A stretch of 33,052 bases of DNA. Origin: Caldora sp. (GTDB lineage: Bacteria; Cyanobacteriota; Cyanobacteriia; Cyanobacteriales; Coleofasciculaceae). A program made the translations under genes and the position numbers. Below are positions 19,810 to 33,052 of this stretch, one piece after another; the first letter of the stretch is position 1; each line of letters begins with the position of its first letter. The stretch spans positions 1 to 33,052 of the forward strand of contig CBDCVG010000043.1 of assembly GCA_965222765.1 (NCBI GenBank), given 5' to 3'. The notes under the pieces were generated by a model that was not told where the DNA came from, made no database searches, and was given only the letters and a program-made list of their open reading frames with translations.

Positions 19810-20559
19810 ATGGATTTGCAGATTGAACTATTGAAAACTATAGCCGCTTTTGATAGAGAAAAGCTCAAAGCAAAGTTTCAATCCCAGAATGAATTTATAG
19901 TAGTAGAGAAATTTCTCCCCACCTCCATCCTGGATGAGTTTCTGCTCACCTTGCCATCACTCAAACCTACCGTCAACCGGAACTATATTCCCAAACATAA
20001 AAAAGGCGGCAGTATCAGCCGCTTCAACCTCGACAGCTTCGCTCCGATTTTTGGCAAATTCTATCAACTACCACTCCTTTTTGAGTTACTCAATGAGATT
20101 ACAGGGGAAAAGCTCCTTTCCTGTCCTCCTAATGATCCTCATACCTACGCCCTGTATTATTACACTGAGCCAGGAGACCACATCCAGTATCATTACGATA
20201 CCTCTTACTATCGAGGTAAGCGGTACACAGTACTGCTCGGTTTAGTTGACCAATCCACTAGTAAACTGGAGTATCAACTCTACCGAGATAACCCCAACCA
20301 GGAAACCCAAACCCACTCTCTAGTATTAACTCCTGGAACTCTAGTATTATTTAATGGTGACAAGCTTTACCATCGGGTAACTCCTTTAGGAGAGAACGAA
20401 GAGCGTATTGCCCTAACGATGGAGTATGTTACTGATATCCGTATGCATGGACTGAAGCGTTTCGTCTCGAATATGAAAGATGCGATCGCTTATTTCGGTT
20501 TTCGTCAAGTGTTTAGCAAAGCAAACACTCCTGAAGCTCCACCGCTTGCTGCTGATTAG
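19810..20559 (+). CDS. Hypothetical protein, possibly of the 2OG-Fe(II) oxygenase superfamily
   Basis: Candidate facial triad H-x-D (IQYHYDTSYY) plus a distal His (LYHRVTP), followed by a basic residue (EERIALTMEY). The assignment is weak and motif-based only. Confidence 0.35.
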   Translation: MDLQIELLKTIAAFDREKLKAKFQSQNEFIVVEKFLPTSILDEFLLTLPSLKPTVNRNYIPKHKKGGSISRFNLDSFAPIFGKFYQLPLLFELLNEITGEKLLSCPPNDPHTYALYYYTEPGDHIQYHYDTSYYRGKRYTVLLGLVDQSTSKLEYQLYRDNPNQETQTHSLVLTPGTLVLFNGDKLYHRVTPLGENEERIALTMEYVTDIRMHGLKRFVSNMKDAIAYFGFRQVFSKANTPEAPPLAAD

Positions 20560-24784: not shown

Positions 24785-26311
24785 TTATGACAAATAAGTA
24801 GACACTCCAGGTCCTAAAGGTAGTCGCAAAATCAACCACAAAATAAACAGAATTGACCATCCAAGAAGAAACACTACAGAATAGGGTAACATCATCGCAA
24901 TTAACGTTCCCAAACCAAAATTTTTATCATATTTTTGTCCATAAGCCACAATAATGGGAAAATAGGGCAACAGAGGTGTAACCATATTGGTGCTGGAATC
25001 CCCAATGCGATAAACCAATTGAGTCAGCTCAGGGGAATAGTCCAACAACATCAACATCGGTACAAAAACAGGAGCCATAATTGCCCATTTTCCCGAAGCT
25101 GAACCAATAAATAGATTAATGAATCCACTCAGAACAATCAAACCCAATAGCAAGGGAATTCCTGTTAATCCCGTCCCCTGCAAGAATTCTGCTCCGGAAA
25201 TAGCGACAATCAGTCCTAAGTTTGTCCAACTAAAATAGGCAACAAATTGAGCCATAAAAAAGGAAAGTACCAGATAATATCCCATCCCACTCATTGCTGA
25301 AGTCATTCCTTGGATGGCATCTTTATCAGTTTTAATACTTCCAGCTCCTAACCCATAGGCAATACCCAGAATTAAAAACACCAATGTCATGATAAATACG
25401 ATACCGCTGAGAAAGGGTGAGGGAATAATGGTGAATGTCTCTGGCTGTCGAAGAATTCCCTGAGGCGGTAGAACTAAAGCCATCAGTAGCCCAATTAAGG
25501 CAGCCAAGGAATAACCTGCCCATCTTAGTCCTTTTTTTTCCTCTACTGTTAGTGTTTCCAGGGAAAAGCTGACATTGTCTGATGATTGATACGTACCTAA
25601 TTGAGGTGCAACAATTCTTTCCGTCACCCACCAACCTAACAAAGTGATGACTAGGGTTGAAACTGCCATAAAATAATAATTGGCGGTTGCATCGACTGTG
25701 TAATTGGCATCAATTAATTGAGCACCACTTTGAGTGATACCTGCCAGCAAAGGATCAAGGGAGTTGACTAGGAAGTTGGCACTAAAACCTCCGGCAACTC
25801 CAGCAAAAGCAGCAGCTAATCCAGCGATTGGATGTTTACCAAAAGAGAGAAAAACTAAAGCGGCTAAGGGGGGTAGAATCACATAACCTGCATCTGCTCC
25901 TAGGTTGGACATTACACCAATAAACACAATCACAGGAGTAATCAACTGAGCAGGGGTAATTAAAACTCCCTGCCTGAGAATTGCAGCTAAAAATCCTGTA
26001 TATTCAGCTACCCCAAACCCTAAAATTGCTACTAATACAGTCCCTAGTGGAGGAAAGGAGACAAAATTACTCACCGCCTCACTGACAATGCGGCGAATTC
26101 CGTCAGGGGTAAGGATAGAAACTGCTTCAATCGTTTCTTGAGTTGCTGGATGAGTGACTGACACCCCCATTCCACTTGCGATCGCACTCACTATAATGAT
26201 AGTGAAACATAGAACGATAAAGATCGTGACAGGATCAGGCAGGCGATTGCCAACGTTTTCAACTCTTTGCAGAGTCGAGGCAATGAATTTTTTTTTCGGA
26301 TGATTTCCCAT
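24785..26311 (-). CDS. AbgT-family transporter (p-aminobenzoyl-glutamate / MtrF-type)
   Basis: N-terminus MGNHPKKKFIASTLQRVENVGNRLPDPVTIFIVL (characteristic AbgT start). 508 aa, polytopic throughout. Confidence 0.75.
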   Translation of the reverse strand: MGNHPKKKFIASTLQRVENVGNRLPDPVTIFIVLCFTIIIVSAIASGMGVSVTHPATQETIEAVSILTPDGIRRIVSEAVSNFVSFPPLGTVLVAILGFGVAEYTGFLAAILRQGVLITPAQLITPVIVFIGVMSNLGADAGYVILPPLAALVFLSFGKHPIAGLAAAFAGVAGGFSANFLVNSLDPLLAGITQSGAQLIDANYTVDATANYYFMAVSTLVITLLGWWVTERIVAPQLGTYQSSDNVSFSLETLTVEEKKGLRWAGYSLAALIGLLMALVLPPQGILRQPETFTIIPSPFLSGIVFIMTLVFLILGIAYGLGAGSIKTDKDAIQGMTSAMSGMGYYLVLSFFMAQFVAYFSWTNLGLIVAISGAEFLQGTGLTGIPLLLGLIVLSGFINLFIGSASGKWAIMAPVFVPMLMLLDYSPELTQLVYRIGDSSTNMVTPLLPYFPIIVAYGQKYDKNFGLGTLIAMMLPYSVVFLLGWSILFILWLILRLPLGPGVSTYLS

Positions 26312-26404: not shown

Positions 26405-26436
26405 CAAACAACAAATGACAAATGACAAATGACAAA
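26405..26436. repeat. STRR heptamer array (ACAAATG x3) overlapping the start codon of the lactate-oxidase-like gene
   Basis: caacaaatgacaaatgacaaatgacaaacc. The ATG used (26422) is the middle of three out-of-frame ATGs created by the repeat. Confidence 0.8.
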
Positions 26437-27525
26437 CCAATAAATCTCTTCGAGTACGAAGCCATGGCACCACAACATCTATCTCAGATGGCGCTGGATT
26501 ACTATGCTAGTGGTGCTGGGGATGAGGTAACACTACGGAATAATCGTACTGCTTTTGAGGCGTTCAAACTTCGTCCTCGGATGTTAGTGGATGTCAGCCA
26601 ACGGGATTTAAGTACAGAAATTTTGGGAGAGCCTGTTTCCCTGCCGATTTTAATTGCGCCGATGGCTTTCCAATGTTTGGCGCATCCGGAAGGAGAAATC
26701 GCAACAGCTAAAGCAGCAGCTGCGTTAGGAACAGTGATGGTTTTGAGTACAATGTCCACTAAGAGTTTAGAAGAGGTGGCACAAGTTTCCCAGCATACCA
26801 ACCAGTGGTTTCAATTGTATATCCATCGCGATCGCGCCTTGACTCGTGCTTTAGTAGAACGAGCAGAGGCAGCTGGTTTTACTGCTCTGTGCCTGACTGT
26901 GGATGCACCGCTTCTAGGATGTCGGGAACGGGATAGGCGCAATCAGTTTACCTTACCATCGGGGATGGAGTTGGCAAATTTAGCAACAATGGCAGATTTG
27001 AAGATTCCCAAAACCGCTGGAGAATCTGGTTTATTGAGTTATTTTGCTCAGCAAATTGATCCAGGAGTAACCTGGTGGGATGTGGAATGGTTGCACTCAC
27101 TAACATCTTTACCCATAGTAATCAAAGGGATTTTACGGGGAGATGATGCCTTGCGGGCTGTAGAATATGGAGCCAAGGCAGTGATTGTCTCAAATCATGG
27201 AGGTAGGCAATTAGATGGAGCGATCGCAACTATTGATGCTTTACCTGAAATTGTGGCAGCAGTAGGAGATCAAGGTCAAGTACTAATTGATGGCGGTATC
27301 CGGCGTGGTACTGATATATTGAAGGCTTTAGCTTTAGGAGCAAAAGGGGTTTTGTTAGGACGTCCAGTTTTGTGGGGATTAGCTCTTGAAGGAGAAGCTG
27401 GGGTGCGTCATGTGTTGCAACTGTTGCGGGATGAGTTGGAGCTGGCGATGGGTTTGAGTGGCTGTGCCAACATACAAGATATTGACTCTAGTTTGGTTAA
27501 GTTAAGACACATTGAAATTGGTTGA
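26422..27525 (+). CDS. FMN-dependent alpha-hydroxy-acid oxidase (L-lactate oxidase / glycolate-oxidase-like)
   Basis: N-terminus PINLFEYEAMAPQHLSQMALDYYASGAGDEVTLRNNRTAFE. Also contains SNHGGRQLDGAIATIDALPEI and IDGGIRRGTDILKALALGAKGVLLGRPVLWGLA (FMN/TIM-barrel signatures). Confidence 0.85.
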   Translation: MTNDKPINLFEYEAMAPQHLSQMALDYYASGAGDEVTLRNNRTAFEAFKLRPRMLVDVSQRDLSTEILGEPVSLPILIAPMAFQCLAHPEGEIATAKAAAALGTVMVLSTMSTKSLEEVAQVSQHTNQWFQLYIHRDRALTRALVERAEAAGFTALCLTVDAPLLGCRERDRRNQFTLPSGMELANLATMADLKIPKTAGESGLLSYFAQQIDPGVTWWDVEWLHSLTSLPIVIKGILRGDDALRAVEYGAKAVIVSNHGGRQLDGAIATIDALPEIVAAVGDQGQVLIDGGIRRGTDILKALALGAKGVLLGRPVLWGLALEGEAGVRHVLQLLRDELELAMGLSGCANIQDIDSSLVKLRHIEIG

Positions 27526-27559: not shown

Positions 27560-27970
27560 AGGGCGGGCTTCTCAGCGACTCCAGGTATTGCTTCGGACGT
27601 TAACTGAGCTTTAAGAACGGGATGCCCCACCGCTCTATTGCAAGATATTGATAGCTGCATTTTGATCACGCCCTAGACTGCACCCACAACTCCGGCAGTT
27701 GTGCCAGCGAATATGCAGTTTTTTTGGTACTTTCTCTCCACAACTGGAGCAATCTTGTGAGGTGTTATAGGCACTTACTGGGATAACCAACTTTCCAGCA
27801 TTCTCGGCTTTGTTTGTCAGTATTAACAGAAAGTTTGATCACCCAGCATCCAACACAGATTTAGCCAGCCTGGTACGAGCAAGACCTTTGATATTTAACT
27901 CTTCATGAGCAATAACGTCATATTTTGACAGCAGTTGATTAGCTGTTTTGAAACAGATTAGAGGCTGTAA
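27560..27970 (-). pseudogene. Degraded, internally deleted relic of a second IS605-family tnpB (3' two-thirds only)
   Basis: 27836-27958 (ctggtacgagcaagacctttgatatttaactcttcatgagcaataacgtcatattttgacagcagttgattagctgtt) aligns with tnpB 4968-5045 at about 75% identity. 27720-27775 aligns with the zinc-ribbon region 4820-4870. No intact ORF remains. Confidence 0.55.
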
Positions 27971-28119
27971 ATCATGAGCTTTTTTGCTAACCTGAAAATT
28001 TCGTTAAAATTCTTGCAGAAGTAGGCAGTAGACTTCTCTAACCAAGAATCTGTAACCCTTATCCTACCTAGATGAAAACTTAACTTCTGGAAATGTCTAA
28101 CTTAGATCCCTTATTGATT

Positions 28120-28157
28120 GCATATTCTAACAACCCTTGCATATTCTAACAACCCTT
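28120..28157 (+). promoter_or_regulatory. Perfect 19-bp tandem direct repeat, 36-73 nt upstream of the methyltransferase start codon (candidate operator / duplicated binding site)
   Basis: gcatattctaacaaccctt is repeated twice head-to-tail (28120-28138, 28139-28157). It is flanked by tattgat motifs on both sides (28112-28118, 28161-28167). Confidence 0.35.
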
Positions 28158-28192: not shown

Positions 28193-29590
28193 ATGAGCCA
28201 AAGCAGATTTACAGAAACAGAGACTGAGGCATTTTATGATGCTGAAGACAGTCTCTACCGCAGTTTCTGGGACTCAGATGGTAGTCTTCACTGGGGTTAT
28301 TTTCTGGACTTGGTTCCCACCCGTGTTGAGGACTTCGTTCCCGCCTGCCAGCGCTGGAATGAATATATGCTAGAAAAAAGCGGAATTACAGCCTCCTCCA
28401 AGGTTCTAGATATTGGCTGTGGTAATGGTAATACTGCTATTTGGCTAGCCGAAAAGACAGGATGTGAAATAGTCGGCATCGATTTGAGTAATGTTCGCAT
28501 CAGTAACGCTATAGAGAAAGCTCGAAACTATCCATCCTTGCGTCTGCAATTTCACAAGGCATCCGCGACTAACCTACCTTTTGAAGAGGGGACTTTTACC
28601 CATATTTGGAGCCAAGCAACCCTCTACCATGTTCATGAACGAGACTTAGCTTTGAAGGAAATGCATCGGGTTCTTCAAGAAAATGGTACATTTCTCTTTG
28701 ACGATTTGATAACCCCAACAAAGCAAATCAGTGAACAAGCTCGCAAATACGTTTACGATCGCCTGCTATTTGAACCAACCTACAGCCACTCAGACTATAT
28801 CGATGCTTTAAGTCAACTAGGCTTAATGGTATTGCACTCAAAAGATTTAAGCGAACATCTCCAGAAAAGCTACGAATTACTTTCTCACTTAGCTCAACCA
28901 CAATATTCAGATTTGAGTGCTGCTTACAACAAAATGTGCGAGGCGATTGCGGCGGGAGAACTAGGGTGGAGCTTCTTTTTAGGGGAAAAAGTCAGCAATC
29001 GCCTTTCCTGGATCTATGAAACGAAAGATACCCAAAAGTTGCAGGATAAATATGATGCTTGGTCTCGCATCTATGATATTGAATTAGAGCAAGCTTATCG
29101 TCTTAGTCCAATTCAGTCAGCTCGTGCCTTAGCCCAAATACTGCCAAATAAAGACGCTAGGATTCTGGATGCTGGAGCTGGTACAGGGATGGTAGGAGAG
29201 GCTTTGGCTCAATTGGGATATACCAATCTTACTGCGATTGACCTCTCGGAACAGATGCTAGAAGTTGCTCGGGAAAAGCAAGTTTACCAAACCCTGTATC
29301 AAGACAATTTAGAAGCACTAGTCAATTGCTCTACTCCCTCTAGCTTTGATGCTATCATCTCTGTGGGAGTTTTTACCTTTGGTCATGCTCAACCAAAAGC
29401 TTTGCTTAATTTAGATACTTTGTTAGTATCTGGTGGTTACTTTGTGCTTACCGTGCGTGTAGATTACCACGACAATAACGAAACTTTGCACAAGGTACTA
29501 GAAGATCTATCTTGGATTTTAATCAACCGAGAGGAATTTACTATCTTCGACACAGAATCGATGTATAGTATGGTTTTCCAAAAGAAGTAG
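28193..29590 (+). CDS. Fused double-domain SAM-dependent N-methyltransferase. The N-terminal domain is SDMT-like (sarcosine/dimethylglycine N-methyltransferase family) and the C-terminal domain is GSMT-like. This is a candidate betaine-forming (successive N-methylation) enzyme.
   Basis: Domain 1 contains FYDAEDSLYRSFWDSDGSLHWGYF, VLDIGCGNGNTAIWLAEKTGCEIVGIDLSNVRISNA and FEEGTFTHIWSQATLYHV (compare the SDMT block DADNFY..WGG.DIH.GLY). Domain 2 contains ARILDAGAGTGMVGEALAQLGYTNLTAIDLSEQMLEVAREK (compare the GSMT block RVLDVACGTG...VDASDKML). Assignment is from recalled motif patterns. Confidence 0.6.
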   Translation: MSQSRFTETETEAFYDAEDSLYRSFWDSDGSLHWGYFLDLVPTRVEDFVPACQRWNEYMLEKSGITASSKVLDIGCGNGNTAIWLAEKTGCEIVGIDLSNVRISNAIEKARNYPSLRLQFHKASATNLPFEEGTFTHIWSQATLYHVHERDLALKEMHRVLQENGTFLFDDLITPTKQISEQARKYVYDRLLFEPTYSHSDYIDALSQLGLMVLHSKDLSEHLQKSYELLSHLAQPQYSDLSAAYNKMCEAIAAGELGWSFFLGEKVSNRLSWIYETKDTQKLQDKYDAWSRIYDIELEQAYRLSPIQSARALAQILPNKDARILDAGAGTGMVGEALAQLGYTNLTAIDLSEQMLEVAREKQVYQTLYQDNLEALVNCSTPSSFDAIISVGVFTFGHAQPKALLNLDTLLVSGGYFVLTVRVDYHDNNETLHKVLEDLSWILINREEFTIFDTESMYSMVFQKK

Positions 29591-29635
29591 TTTTCGATTA
29601 ATCTAACAAACTCAATTCAGGAGAAAACAGAAGAA

Positions 29636-30100
29636 ATGGGGACAATCAAGCTTATGCATGCCAAGCTGCATCGTGTCCGCGTAACTGAAGCTAACCTCCA
29701 TTATGTAGGTAGTATTACTATTGACCGAGAGCTACTGGAAAAAGTAGGAATCCTGCCTCTAGAAGAAGTAGAAATTGTCAACATTGATAATGGGAATCGC
29801 TGGTATACTTATGTGCTTCCAGGAGAGGCAGGAAGTGGAGCAATTTGTCCTAATGGTGGCGGTGCACTATTGTGCCAACCTGGAGATACCTTGATTATTT
29901 GGGCCAACGAGGATCTAGAGCGTTCTGAAGTTTTGTGTAACGGACACCAAGCGCGAGTGTTGATTGCCGACGAAAATAACCAAGCTCAGGAAGTTTTCTA
30001 CCAAACTCTCACTCCTAATGGGGAGACATTGGAATACAACGGTTATGAAACTGCGAACGGCAAACAACCGATTGATTCCAAGTCTTTAGTAGGAGTTTGA
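29636..30100 (+). CDS. panD: Aspartate 1-decarboxylase (pyruvoyl-dependent; forms beta-alanine) with an atypical ~30-aa C-terminal extension
   Basis: Contains [34 protein letters not shown], with the Gly-Ser self-cleavage site in YVGSITID. Total length is 154 aa (the family is usually about 115-140 aa). Confidence 0.85.
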
Positions 30101-30109
30101 AATAAGCTA

Positions 30110-30718
30110 ATGACCAGTAACTTCAATTACTATGAAGTTCCCTTAAAAAGGCTGAACTCAAAAAATGCTCAAGGAGTAGGAGTCGTATTCACAGAGTTTA
30201 AAGATGTGGCAATAGAATTGTGCCAATGGCCTACTCAAGGAAAACGACCTTTGATTGCCAAGGGGGGTTACGGTACCGTTATTGAAGAGGAATTCAGACT
30301 TTATTGTCAGGGTTCGACTATGCTTTCTGCTGGTCATCAAAATGCTCGCGGCGGTGTCACAGGTAAGATTGTATCTGACCCAGAGAATAACTCCAAGTAT
30401 GTTCTGGTCAATTGGCTGAGTGCTCATCTTGATGCAGGAGAAGCTTTTATTGCGAAAAATGGCGAACCCGGTATATTTCTGTTGGCTCCTCCGAAAGAGG
30501 ATGTCAAACCAGAAGATTTTGTAGCCTTTTATTCGGATGGTAGCTGTGGCATCTCAATGCATCCTGGGGTATGGCACACAACTCCTCTATCCCTTTGTGA
30601 ACAGGAAGTAGTCTATAAGAGAAAGCAAGGCAGTATCTATGCAACAATCGATTGTGTCTTAACCAAAGAGCATAATACTTGGTTAAAGATTCCCCTGCGT
30701 CAACCTGAAGATGGTTAG
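30110..30718 (+). CDS. Cupin-fold protein resembling the ureidoglycolate lyase (AllA) family
   Basis: Block GISMHPGVWHTTPLS (compare AllA VNYHRNVWHHPL). N-terminus ...YYEVPLKRLNSKNAQGVGVVF. Weak, motif-level assignment. Confidence 0.35.
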   Translation: MTSNFNYYEVPLKRLNSKNAQGVGVVFTEFKDVAIELCQWPTQGKRPLIAKGGYGTVIEEEFRLYCQGSTMLSAGHQNARGGVTGKIVSDPENNSKYVLVNWLSAHLDAGEAFIAKNGEPGIFLLAPPKEDVKPEDFVAFYSDGSCGISMHPGVWHTTPLSLCEQEVVYKRKQGSIYATIDCVLTKEHNTWLKIPLRQPEDG

Positions 30719-30777
30719 TAAACTCTCAAGCGCTCAATCAACATCTCAGGTGGTAAATAAAGAAACAAAGGAGTAAT

Positions 30778-32097
30778 ATGACAACTCTACTTCGGCAAGT
30801 CAAAAGTGCTTTTCGGATCGAATCGGTTGCAACAGTCGATAACGGGGTGCAAATTACTTGGAAAGATGGTCATGAAAGCTTTTATCACAACCTCTGGTTG
30901 CGGGATACTTGCCATTGTCCCGAATGCTTTCAGCAGGATACATTGAGCCTTAACAGTGGAGAAGGGAAAGGTCATGACCCCCTCAACATGCCACTCAAGC
31001 CGATAACTCAAGAGGTTAAGTGCGATCGCGAAGGAAATTTAGATATTATTTGGGGTGGTGAAGAACCTGGACATCATAGTGTATTCGATCCCTCTTGGCT
31101 AAGGGTTCACTGTCAAAAAGACCCTGCTCTCAAACAAAGAAGAAAACCTCAACTCTGGGATGCATCAGTGTCCATTCCTCACTTCGACTACCACGAAGTG
31201 ATGCAAGACAATGATGCACTATTGCTATGGTTGGAGAAGATGCTGGAATTGGGAGCAGTAATCATTGATAACTTTCCCAAAAATCGAGCGGGTTTTCAAG
31301 CACTAATAGAGCGTATCGGACCAATCCAGCAGCGATATCATCCCACACATATTTTTACCTTAGATACAGCTAACAAATTGGCAGGGAATATTCACCACGC
31401 CTATCAATACTTGGAACGTTTACATAATCATACAGATCATGTTTCTTACAACGTTCCTCCTAGACTCCAATTTCTCGGATGTATTGAATACGAAAACTCT
31501 GACAATGATAGCCAGGGATATTCCACTTTGGTAGATGGTTTTAAAATTGCCGAAGTTTTGAGGAGGCAACAGCCAAAATATTTCGAGCTACTCACTCAAG
31601 AGTATGTACCAACGGGTCGCCGACGGCTGGGTGTAGAAGAAAAAGTATCCAATAAGGAAAAAGGCACCAAGAAATACCAATGGGAAACTTATCATCGCCA
31701 GCACGTCATTAATCTGGATGAAAATGGGGAAGTTTACCAGATTCGTCACCATGAAAATGACCGGGTCCCCCTAGATGTTTCCCCTGATAAAATAGAAGAT
31801 TTGTATGCCGCGTACCAAGCATTTACGGCATTAGCTGAATCTCCCGAATATATCGCCGAATTTCTCATCGCTCCCGGACAAGTCTTAGTTAACGATAACT
31901 GGCGACTGCTCCACGGACGGACAGCTATTTGGAATCCCGGATTACGACGAATTTTACTGGGAGCTTATATGAAACCAGAAACCTTCCGCAGTCGGAGGCG
32001 ACTGTTGCTGGGGAAGAAAAGTGGGTTACCCAATATGTGGTTAATGGGATGTTCGGATCGCGCTTTAGAAATTCTGGCAGACCGCATGAAAGATTAG
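30778..32097 (+). CDS. Gamma-butyrobetaine hydroxylase / trimethyllysine hydroxylase-like Fe(II)/2-oxoglutarate dioxygenase (N-terminal DUF971 zinc domain + TauD fold), paralog 1
   Basis: DUF971 region FRIESVATVDNGVQITWKDGHESFYHNLWLRDTCHCPECF (Cys/His Zn site). TauD core LHNHTDHVSYNVPPRLQFLGCIEYE...GYSTLVDGFKIAEVLRRQQPKYFELL (compare BBOX FHTDYPA...GGDSEIVDGF...NPQAF) and ...LLHGRTAI. AAGGAG RBS. Confidence 0.75.
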   Translation: MTTLLRQVKSAFRIESVATVDNGVQITWKDGHESFYHNLWLRDTCHCPECFQQDTLSLNSGEGKGHDPLNMPLKPITQEVKCDREGNLDIIWGGEEPGHHSVFDPSWLRVHCQKDPALKQRRKPQLWDASVSIPHFDYHEVMQDNDALLLWLEKMLELGAVIIDNFPKNRAGFQALIERIGPIQQRYHPTHIFTLDTANKLAGNIHHAYQYLERLHNHTDHVSYNVPPRLQFLGCIEYENSDNDSQGYSTLVDGFKIAEVLRRQQPKYFELLTQEYVPTGRRRLGVEEKVSNKEKGTKKYQWETYHRQHVINLDENGEVYQIRHHENDRVPLDVSPDKIEDLYAAYQAFTALAESPEYIAEFLIAPGQVLVNDNWRLLHGRTAIWNPGLRRILLGAYMKPETFRSRRRLLLGKKSGLPNMWLMGCSDRALEILADRMKD

Positions 32098-32130
32098 AGT
32101 AGATTATTTTGGCTCAATTGGAGGAGTAAA

Positions 32131-33052
32131 ATGACAACAGTCTTGCAACAACTCAAACCAGCTTTTCGCATCGACTCAATAGTAACCCTTGATAAGGGTC
32201 TGAATATTACTTGGAAAGATGGTCACGAAAGTTTTTACCATTATCTTTGGCTTCTAGATAGCTGTCGCTGTTCCAAATGTTTTCAACGAGATACTTTGAG
32301 TCTAGGTCACGGACACGATCTGCTCAAAATGCCTTTAAACCCAACTCCTCAAGAGGTTAAGCTCGATCGCGAGGGTAATTTAGATATTGTTTGGGGTGGG
32401 AAACAAACAGGTCATCACAGCGTATTTGATGCCTCATGGTTGCGGGTTCACTGCCCAAATGACCCTGCACTAAAACAAAAGCGAAAACCTCAACTGTGGG
32501 ATTCGTCAGTATCCGTACCTCATTTTGATTGCCATGAGGTGATGAACGATGATGGGGTATTATTATCGTTTTTGAATCAGATCGTAGAATTGGGGGTAGC
32601 AATAATTGAGAACGCTCCCAAGAATGAAGAGAGTTTTCGAGCACTAATAGAGCGGGTCGGACCACTGCGGCAACGATACCATCCCACAAATGTTTTTACC
32701 ATGGATAGAAGCAATAAAAAGGCTCAGGCTATCCAACATTCTTATCAAGTGGGAACCTTAAGAAATCATACAGATGTTACAGCTTATGATATTCCCACAG
32801 GATTGCAATTTTTTGAATGTACCCTTTATGAAAACCCAGATGGCGATCGCCAAGCCTATTCTACAGTTGTTGATGGTTTCAAACTTGCAGAGGTTATCAA
32901 GACAGAAAACCCCTGGTTTTACGAGTTGCTAACTACTGAATATATTCCCGCAGGTCGCAAGCGACTTTCCGTTGAGGAAAAACTAGGAGAACATGAATCT
33001 AGTGCCAAGAAGTACGAATGGGACGCTTATCGGCGCAACCACTTGATTCAAT
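32131..33052 (+). CDS. BBOX/TMLH-like DUF971–TauD dioxygenase, paralog 2 (3'-partial, runs off window)
   Basis: Starts MTTVLQQLKPAFRIDSIVTLDKGLNITWKDGHESFYHYLWLLDSCRCSKCF...NHTDVTAYDIPTGLQFFECTLYE...AYSTVVDGFKLAEV. About 50% identical to paralog 1 over the aligned part. GGAGG RBS at 32121-32125. No stop before the window end. Confidence 0.75.
   Translation, partial: MTTVLQQLKPAFRIDSIVTLDKGLNITWKDGHESFYHYLWLLDSCRCSKCFQRDTLSLGHGHDLLKMPLNPTPQEVKLDREGNLDIVWGGKQTGHHSVFDASWLRVHCPNDPALKQKRKPQLWDSSVSVPHFDCHEVMNDDGVLLSFLNQIVELGVAIIENAPKNEESFRALIERVGPLRQRYHPTNVFTMDRSNKKAQAIQHSYQVGTLRNHTDVTAYDIPTGLQFFECTLYENPDGDRQAYSTVVDGFKLAEVIKTENPWFYELLTTEYIPAGRKRLSVEEKLGEHESSAKKYEWDAYRRNHLIQ

Follow-up and report, generated by a model that had tools for sequence, protein, structure and literature searches.

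What does a filamentous cyanobacterium make with two fused methyltransferases, an aspartate decarboxylase, a cupin and a pair of dioxygenases of the carnitine-forming kind? The question is raised by a five-gene cluster at positions 28193-33052 of a Caldora sp. contig (CBDCVG010000043.1, assembly GCA_965222765.1, positions 1-33,052 of the forward strand; the window, below, is this whole stretch of 33,052 nucleotides). An earlier note had proposed that the cluster decarboxylates aspartate to beta-alanine, methylates it three times and oxidizes the resulting betaine. The genes encode, in order, a protein with two class-I S-adenosylmethionine (SAM)-dependent methyltransferase domains (MT2; its N- and C-domains and their separate homologues are referred to as MT-N and MT-C), the aspartate decarboxylase PanD, a stand-alone cupin, and two paralogous Fe(II)/2-oxoglutarate (2OG) dioxygenases resembling gamma-butyrobetaine hydroxylase (GBBH). 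Profile searches uphold the domain assignments of that note (a double methyltransferase, PanD and a DUF971/GBBH-like_N-TauD pair), and comparative genomics favors the route from PanD through triple N-methylation to an oxidized beta-alanine betaine; what is weakened, by the nature of the cupin, is the notion that a carnitine-like hydroxy-betaine is the end product. That the cluster is an operon for the biosynthesis of a quaternary ammonium compound derived from beta-alanine is a reading to which about even weight can be given, all four of its steps being predictions.

The evidence that carries this reading is the linkage of PanD to the methyltransferase. Loci were gathered around MT2 homologues from a species-level genome collection and by exact-protein look-ups, and the cluster proteins were then mapped onto them. 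PanD directly adjoins the methyltransferase pair in 28 of the 29 genome loci that carry both domains side by side, and is located directly upstream of an MT-N homologue in four further loci (L022, L023, L025 and L026). The PanD-adjacent genome loci span the Chloroflexota, the Cyanobacteria, a Methanosarcinales metagenome-assembled genome (MAG) and a Hyphomicrobiaceae MAG, and the pairing is also seen in Mycobacterium, Thalassomonas, Aetokthonos, Hormoscilla and Symploca. Approximately 30 Dehalococcoidia MAGs, one of them named ALOHA, encode PanD, MT-N (~270 aa) and MT-C (~210 aa) in three consecutive separate genes and lack a dioxygenase in the vicinity; fusion of MT-N to MT-C is seen in cyanobacteria, Mycobacterium, Streptomyces and Thalassomonas. 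The order of the genes varies between loci (PanD-MTN-MTC, MT2-PanD, MT2-cupin-PanD), which argues that the linkage is under selection. On the evidence of genome comparison, PanD and the methyltransferase behave as a functionally coupled module would, and not as accidental neighbors. The survey of gene neighborhoods called for at the outset has in this way found a linkage conserved in several phyla, with all five genes shared with Moorena.

PanD scores 138.4 bits against PF02261 (cut-off 25) and 113.1 bits against TIGR00223 (cut-off 106). It keeps the Gly24-Ser25 self-cleavage site as well as K9, H11, Y22, R54, T57, Y58 and N72 when aligned to the Mycobacterium tuberculosis (2c45) and Escherichia coli (1ppy) enzymes. 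PanD is predicted to be an aspartate 1-decarboxylase supplying beta-alanine, and this conversion, as the first step of the pathway, would be very probable. The C-terminal extension that the protein had been thought to carry is not unusual: most of the 120 PanD relatives listed, cyanobacterial wherever the source is named, are ~140-160 aa long. Identity falls off gradually over these best 120 relatives, from 95% to 60%, and no second clade stands out clearly; among other cyanobacterial PanDs of similar length, identity to the window PanD is 65-95%. A 154-aa PanD is found in an unrelated context in the complete genome GCA_000317025.1 (labeled Hydrococcus sp. by one source). It is at this point that a different reading of the cluster must be brought in: that it handles some other onium compound, either in a sulfonium pathway like that for dimethylsulfoniopropionate (DMSP) or in the catabolism or salvage of carnitine or gamma-butyrobetaine, PanD being only a housekeeping neighbor. 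In favor of this, ordinary cyanobacterial PanDs share 65-77% identity with the cluster PanD, which may be the sole copy, and an MT2 next to a GBBH-like gene occurs without PanD in Streptomyces and in a metagenomic proteobacterium (L089). Against this stands adjacency in 28 of 29 loci, whatever the phylum or the order of the genes, as does the lack, in the cluster, of transporter, dehydrogenase and trimethylamine-lyase genes; these and further considerations that follow make such an assignment very improbable.

The two class-I SAM methyltransferase domains of MT2, delimited by Pfam and NCBIfam searches at aa ~53-190 and ~300-430, have intact copies of motif I (VLDIGCGNG and ILDAGAGTG, respectively) that are invariant or nearly so in an alignment of the MT2 family. 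These domains had been described as SDMT-like and GSMT-like. The presence of two SAM domains stands, but the GSMT-like character of the second does not: its best PDB relative is METTL27 (7qcb, E 5e-10), and no GSMT is found among its PDB matches. The SDMT model NF041675 matches the N-domain only, at 96 bits, far under its cut-off of 550; the putative SDMT structure 2o57 is a distant PDB match to the same domain (E 4e-10). The proposed role of MT2, read from its sequence and surroundings, is to carry out three N-methylations of beta-alanine. The two domains would share these SAM-dependent reactions, with a division of labor like that of the GSMT/SDMT pair of glycine betaine synthesis, to generate beta-alanine betaine in what would be a probable second step. 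Glycine betaine synthesis (GSMT with SDMT/DMT, e.g., in Aphanothece halophytica; fused in Actinopolyspora) likewise uses two class-I SAM modules to convert a primary amino acid to a trimethyl betaine, and the N-domain of MT2 shares the SDMT/PEAMT-type architecture; here, in contrast, the C-domain is METTL27-like and the linked PanD points to beta-alanine as the substrate. The plant enzyme BANMT belongs to the O-methyltransferase family, and the plant pathway is not known to include a linked PanD or oxygenases. BANMT of Limonium latifolium makes the same proposed product by three SAM-dependent methylations as a single trifunctional protein (PMC9699165). MT2 also bears on the sulfonium alternative. 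Its N-domain is 25% identical over 273 aa to DsyG, the methyltransferase of DMSP synthesis, but two methyltransferase domains suit three methylations of a primary amine, whereas a thioether needs one. Some independent, albeit weak, support for the pairing of methyltransferase with PanD comes from the red algae: a DsyG-like methyltransferase fused to a PanD-family domain has no DMSP-synthesis activity (PMC11306096), and Pyropia, a genus related to the alga with that fusion, accumulates beta-alanine betaine.

Homologues of the separate MT2 domains are found elsewhere. Stand-alone MT-N homologues of 270-282 aa (L015-L021) were considered as DsyG or DsyGD and rejected: they have no PF04115 domain and are ~60% identical to the MT2 N-domain, which is itself only 25% identical to DsyG, and they lie in a different cluster. 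The latter, found in Moorena bouillonii, Hormoscilla, Pleurocapsa, other cyanobacterial MAGs and one MAG labeled gammaproteobacterial, conserves a 252-aa TauD-family oxygenase, two class-III aminotransferases (presumably EctB-like) and a D-glutamate-cyclase-like protein, and may specify another onium or betaine pathway. Stand-alone MT-C homologues adjoin further GBBH-like dioxygenases at L053 (Okeania hirsuta; two in tandem), L064 (a second locus of Moorena producens 3L) and L077, hinting at more trimethylammonium-processing clusters in the same organisms.

Both dioxygenases of the window are composed of PF06155 (GBBH-like_N) and PF02668 (TauD) domains, and both fall short of the curated equivalog thresholds (224 vs 414.75 for TIGR02409, 162 vs 268 for TIGR02410, 169 vs 400 for NF049936). 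The PDB relatives of paralogue 1 are BBOX1 (E 3e-35), DfmD (9j0j, E 4e-34) and TmpA. Paralogue 1 keeps (in BBOX1 numbering) the H202, D204, H347 iron triad and the 2OG-binding arginines R349 and R360; paralogue 2, which is partial in the window, has the H-x-D motif, and the remainder of the triad and the arginines are present in its orthologues. The CxCxxC...H Zn site is conserved in paralogue 1, and all three of its cysteines are kept in both window paralogues. (Paralogue 2 of Hormoscilla and of Paraprochloron lacks two of the three, by C40S and C43F; paralogue 1 of Hormoscilla lacks one.) The window enzymes share with BBOX1 the GBBH-like_N Zn domain, the TauD fold, the H-x-D...H triad, the 2OG arginine and Y194/Y366, but differ in being only 24-28% identical to it, in a proposed substrate that is one carbon shorter, and in forming a tandem paralogue pair. 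As to the aromatic cage that holds the trimethylammonium group in BBOX1, to which the earlier note had drawn attention, Y194 and Y366 are retained but two other residues are changed, Y177 to H and W181 to F (still aromatic), in an indel-rich region where the alignment is uncertain; the carboxylate-binding N191 is H in paralogue 1 and Q in paralogue 2. The dioxygenases of Mycobacterium marinum and Thalassomonas keep Y177 and N191, position 181 being W in the former and Y in the latter.

The CH2-N+Me3 group is common to the substrates of the characterized PDB relatives BBOX1, TmpA and DfmD and of TMLD, which is matched only as an NCBIfam model. (Trimethyllysine hydroxylase and GBBH had been taken for the sole characterized members of this architecture, but TmpA and DfmD, which act on 2-trimethylaminoethylphosphonate, are characterized also.) That the characterized relatives of the dioxygenases all bind trimethylammonium groups counts further against the sulfonium and salvage alternatives. 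For the third step, the GBBH-like enzyme would hydroxylate beta-alanine betaine at C2, next to the CH2-N+Me3 group, as BBOX does gamma-butyrobetaine and TmpA does 2-trimethylaminoethylphosphonate, to yield 2-hydroxy-3-(trimethylammonio)propanoate, the homologue of carnitine that is shorter by one carbon. The chance that it does so would be somewhat better than even.

A GBBH-like gene adjoins the methyltransferase in this window and in Moorena, Okeania, Hormoscilla and Candidatus Paraprochloron (Oscillatoriales and sponge-symbiont cyanobacteria), and likewise in Aetokthonos, M. marinum, Streptomyces albireticuli, Thalassomonas viridans and the metagenomic proteobacterium L089. These MT2-linked dioxygenases are only 20-39% identical between lineages and fall into at least four divergent clades; the association with the methyltransferase must therefore be ancient or have arisen repeatedly. 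The heterocystous Aetokthonos has GBBH-MT2-PanD only, with neither cupin nor acyltransferase. In a Trichodesmium MAG (L092), a partial MT2 homologue (62% identity to aa 183-374) precedes PanD and a TauD-fold protein of 305 aa; this last protein has no GBBH N-domain, and its identity to the Aetokthonos dioxygenase is 74%. The cluster there has decayed or else is a variant. Both paralogues occur together in every Oscillatoriales-type cluster. Paralogue 2 of the window shares 62% identity with paralogue 1 and is closer to its counterparts in Moorena, Hormoscilla and Paraprochloron (80-86%); the two window paralogues differ at contact positions 185, 191 and 205 (paralogue 2 has R185 and Q191). They either act in sequence on different substrates or form a heterodimer.

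The relationship to DfmD opens a further possibility: desaturation, N-methyl migration and demethylation of beta-alanine betaine by one of the dioxygenases or by both, leading not to a hydroxy-betaine but to an unsaturated or chain-extended amino acid as a small bioactive natural product. In dehydrofosmidomycin biosynthesis a primary amine is trimethylated and then acted on by a GBBH-like 2OG oxygenase, DfmD, that is encoded beside the methyltransferase, and a putative SAM-dependent N-methyltransferase is reported to share the operon of every DfmD-clade homologue (PMC9296572). DfmD acts on a phosphonate isosteric with beta-alanine betaine, and its structure 9j0j matches paralogue 1 as well as human BBOX1 does. 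The presence of two divergent paralogues with altered substrate-contact residues is compatible with such chemistry. So is the composition of an extended, seven-gene version of the cluster in Hormoscilla (L002/L003), Ca. Paraprochloron terpiosi (L007) and Okeania sp. SIO3B5 (L044), into which AsnB (563 bits, passing its equivalog threshold of 499) and a halogenase-like PhyH-family protein (nearest to the 'chlorinating enzyme' model TIGR01762, at 149 bits under the cut-off of 226) are inserted; Hormoscilla also has upstream Rieske, aminotransferase, GNAT-like and NAD-epimerase genes. However, identity of the window dioxygenases to DfmD is 25-29%, not above that to BBOX1 or TmpA, DfmD works on a phosphonate, the five-gene version has no resistance, export or carrier-protein genes, and the acyltransferase partners found in other phyla require a hydroxyl group. 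A rearranging or desaturating function is on balance improbable, and C2 hydroxylation remains the preferred assignment.

Those acyltransferase partners are the strongest indirect support for the 2-hydroxy-3-trimethylammoniopropanoate intermediate. Carnitine and choline acyltransferases esterify a hydroxyl that is beta to a trimethylammonium group, and C2 hydroxylation of beta-alanine betaine would produce just such a hydroxyl. An acyl-transfer enzyme is encoded directly after the dioxygenase or the methyltransferase in three lineages: a 657-aa protein of the carnitine-acyltransferase family (Carn_acyltransf) in M. marinum, an AMP-binding (adenylating) enzyme together with a PP-binding-Carn_acyltransf fusion in the metagenomic proteobacterium L089, and a FAAL-T-C protein in Thalassomonas. 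The existence of these partners implies a beta-hydroxy trimethylammonium intermediate, and in these three lineages the hydroxyl introduced in the third step would then be O-acylated.

The Oscillatoriales-type clusters have a cupin instead, and its relationship to DsyD, the PF04115 domain of DsyGD, redirects the argument. The earlier note had listed the cupin without identifying it; BLASTP (2e-25 over 189 aa) and hhalign (probability 99.45%, full length, 191 columns) identify it as a homologue of DsyD, the DsyGD sequences for comparison having been taken from the supplement of PMC11306096. A cupin-family profile matches a Gynuella DsyGD orthologue with E 8e-21 in a library of 1.8 billion proteins. 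The cupin is 27-38% identical to DsyD and matches PF04115 itself weakly (24.8 bits, cut-off 23). H-x-D...H is invariant in the cupin family, and DsyD has H-x-E...H where AllA (ureidoglycolate lyase) has H-P-L, which suggests that the family has a metal site that AllA lacks. AllA models are not approached (the highest NCBIfam score, 30.6 bits, is far from the 230 required), and no allantoin-pathway genes lie near the cluster. DsyD converts 4-dimethylsulfonio-2-hydroxybutyrate (DMSHB) to DMSP, and no other enzyme is known to do so; no single-domain DsyD is known (PMC11306096). The cupin is present at every Oscillatoriales-type and sponge-symbiont locus with the 439/433-aa dioxygenase pair.

Homology with DsyD implies an extra decarboxylation step, and the product may accordingly differ from a carnitine-like hydroxy-betaine. 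Since the predicted C2-hydroxy product belongs to the substrate class of DsyD, the onium 2-hydroxy acids, a fourth step is proposed for the cyanobacterial version, in which the cupin would oxidatively decarboxylate this product, formally to glycine betaine and CO2. This would be the nitrogen counterpart of the conversion of DMSHB to DMSP, and would account for the joint occurrence of cupin and dioxygenases, but it is put forward tentatively and is open to considerable doubt. TmpB is an HD-domain oxygenase and not a cupin. The logic of TmpA/TmpB is nevertheless mirrored here: 2-trimethylaminoethylphosphonate, the phosphonate isostere of beta-alanine betaine, is converted to its 1-hydroxy derivative and then to glycine betaine and Pi, a hydroxylase being followed by removal of the acid group just as is proposed for dioxygenase and cupin, although TmpAB is catabolic and the present cluster is proposed to be biosynthetic. 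The resemblance to DsyD, as to DsyG, might be turned to the advantage of a sulfonium pathway. DsyGD of Gynuella and some Oscillatoriales combines a methyltransferase of the same broad subfamily with a PF04115 domain (PMC11306096); in the window, in contrast, the cupin stands alone, the methyltransferase is fused to a second methyltransferase domain, and the PanD/GBBH-like context points to ammonium compounds. Symploca sp. SIO3E6 carries a separate DsyGD besides this cluster, which also counts against a sulfonium role.

Alternatively, the first three steps may be as proposed and the pathway may end with 2-hydroxy-3-trimethylammoniopropanoate or a doubly oxidized derivative, serving as a compatible solute or signal, with the cupin acting, for example, as an epimerase or lyase. 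The Aetokthonos cluster, with neither cupin nor acyltransferase, suggests that the hydroxy-betaine can be terminal; the cupin fold occurs also in sugar epimerases and isomerases; and single-domain relatives of DsyD are inactive on DMSHB. On the other hand, the cupin can be aligned with DsyD from end to end and has the H-x-(D/E)...H positions in common with it, the predicted hydroxylation product falls in DsyD's substrate class, and the cupin always accompanies the paralogue pair. Termination at the hydroxy-betaine is, in the cyanobacterial cluster, unlikely.

Several facts weigh against the proposed sequence of PanD, MT2, dioxygenase and cupin as a whole. The substrate of MT2 is deduced from gene context alone, and that context is incomplete in Streptomyces (L088) and L089, where MT2 and the GBBH-like gene have no adjacent PanD. 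In the window dioxygenases, Y177 and W181 of the BBOX cage and N191 are replaced, and in addition an insertion adds ~17 residues and the C-terminus extends ~30 residues further; because of these changes the substrate may be something other than plain beta-alanine betaine. In published assays, DsyD-like proteins with a single domain and a similar level of identity (28-34%) did not decarboxylate DMSHB (PMC11306096), so that the chemistry of the family is known from one enzyme only. Glycine betaine costs more by this route than by direct methylation of glycine. The second dioxygenase, finally, has no role in a route to glycine betaine; it may be a heterodimer partner or may carry out a further oxidation, but because it fits no step the final product is uncertain.

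Every enzyme family involved is known, and there are precedents for the logic of the pathway; it is the combination that appears to be undescribed. Of the eukaryote-type carnitine pathway (TMLH, HTML aldolase, TMABA dehydrogenase and BBOX), only BBOX-like genes are represented, and there is no aldolase or aldehyde dehydrogenase in or beside the cluster. A full-text search of the searchable literature found no bacterial beta-alanine betaine pathway, no hydroxy-beta-alanine betaine and no such gene combination, the only relevant papers being those on DsyGD, DfmD and plant BANMT; this agrees with the earlier note, whose author knew of no described bacterial pathway with this gene set. The 'norcarnitine' of the literature is N-demethylcarnitine. 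Plant BANMT is the only enzyme cited for beta-alanine betaine synthesis (PMC9699165). Open-ocean communities of the North Pacific nonetheless make the compound in situ, with 13C methyl label taken up via SAM (PMC9321204). The PanD/MT-N/MT-C module of Dehalococcoidia MAGs and of filamentous and sponge-symbiont cyanobacteria is a gene candidate for that synthesis. A speculative generalization, offered with some diffidence, is that PanD with MT-N/MT-C supplies the microbial route to beta-alanine betaine that has been missing, at work in marine Dehalococcoidia, cyanobacteria and sponge symbionts, and that its GBBH-linked versions make a bacterial carnitine homologue so far unrecognized, 2-hydroxy-3-trimethylammoniopropanoate, to be O-acylated to acyl-carnitine-like lipids (M. 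marinum, Thalassomonas and others) or shortened by the cupin to glycine betaine in a step resembling alpha-oxidation (marine filamentous cyanobacteria). If that were true, the dioxygenase-linked versions would predict a bacterial carnitine one carbon shorter and its acyl esters in M. marinum and marine proteobacteria, and the stand-alone cupin would extend the only known family of onium-hydroxy-acid decarboxylases from sulfonium to ammonium chemistry.

The layout of the cluster (Table 1) is exactly that of the earlier note, whose coordinates all match: five open reading frames on the + strand separated by gaps of 45, 9, 59 and 33 nt, the last of them open. None of the four gaps contains a terminator-like site, and the GC content of the cluster is that of the surrounding window. 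The nearest relatives are Symploca proteins (PanD 88-95% and MT2 88% identical), from which the source of the window is taken to be a marine filamentous cyanobacterium resembling Symploca.

Table 1. Positions of the five genes and of the two MT2 domains in the window.
Feature	Position (nt)	Strand	Assignment
MT2, fused two-domain class-I SAM methyltransferase, 465 aa	28193-29590	+	Pfam, NCBIfam, PDB relatives
MT2 N-domain, aa 1-~275	28193-29017	+	SDMT/PEAMT/DsyG-like onium-forming subfamily
MT2 C-domain, aa ~276-465	29018-29590	+	METTL27-like
PanD, aspartate 1-decarboxylase, pyruvoyl type, 154 aa	29636-30100	+	PF02261, TIGR00223
Stand-alone PF04115 cupin, AllA fold, 202 aa	30110-30718	+	homologous to DsyD domain
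GBBH-like Fe(II)/2OG dioxygenase, paralogue 1, 439 aa	30778-32097	+	GBBH-like_N + TauD
GBBH-like dioxygenase, paralogue 2, first 307 codons, open at window end	32131-33052	+	GBBH-like_N + TauD

The window lacks ~125 codons of paralogue 2, the orthologues of which are 433 aa long. A look-up of the window dioxygenase by exact sequence matched no record, and close relatives were relied on in its place. It had been supposed that the cluster might run past the end of the window, but the second dioxygenase is the final cluster gene in Moorena, Hormoscilla and Paraprochloron, and continuation is, judging from these relatives, probably not to be expected. M. producens 3L and M. bouillonii have the same five genes in an order that differs from the window's and between flanks unrelated to the window's, namely a P-type ATPase and, at the opposite end, cell-wall hydrolases. 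In M. bouillonii PNG5-198 (L087), which is syntenic with M. producens 3L, only a 128-aa remnant of the methyltransferase is left, the other four genes (for the cupin, PanD and the two dioxygenases) being intact. Two upstream genes were considered as cluster members and ruled out, being absent at related loci: an FMN (flavin mononucleotide)-dependent alpha-hydroxy-acid oxidase (26422-27525, +; PF01070, 479 bits), a tempting candidate given the predicted 2-hydroxy-acid intermediate, and an AbgT-family transporter (24785-26311, -). Because these are not conserved elsewhere and the Moorena flanks define its limits, the cluster is taken to consist of five genes. A homologue in Lyngbya sp. PCC 8106 (45% identical) was set aside on account of its degenerate N-terminal SAM motif and unrelated context.

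Some minor features of the window may be added. A 249-aa protein with HalD-like and 2OG-Fe(II)_Oxy_3 matches (19810-20559, +) is encoded 8 kb upstream of the cluster, where it adjoins a GHMP kinase and KsgA with no link to the cluster seen. Closer by, a 51-aa open reading frame (27635-27790, -) presumably resembles, by recognition alone, the zinc-ribbon C-terminus of TnpB/OrfB (IS200/IS605-type); as a candidate mobile-element remnant it would sit in the 667-nt gap just 5' of the cluster. An exact tandem duplication of 19 nt, TTGCATATTCTAACAACCC x2, at 28118-28155 ends 38 nt 5' of the MT2 start codon, and may act as an operator or a promoter element, or be the scar of a duplication.

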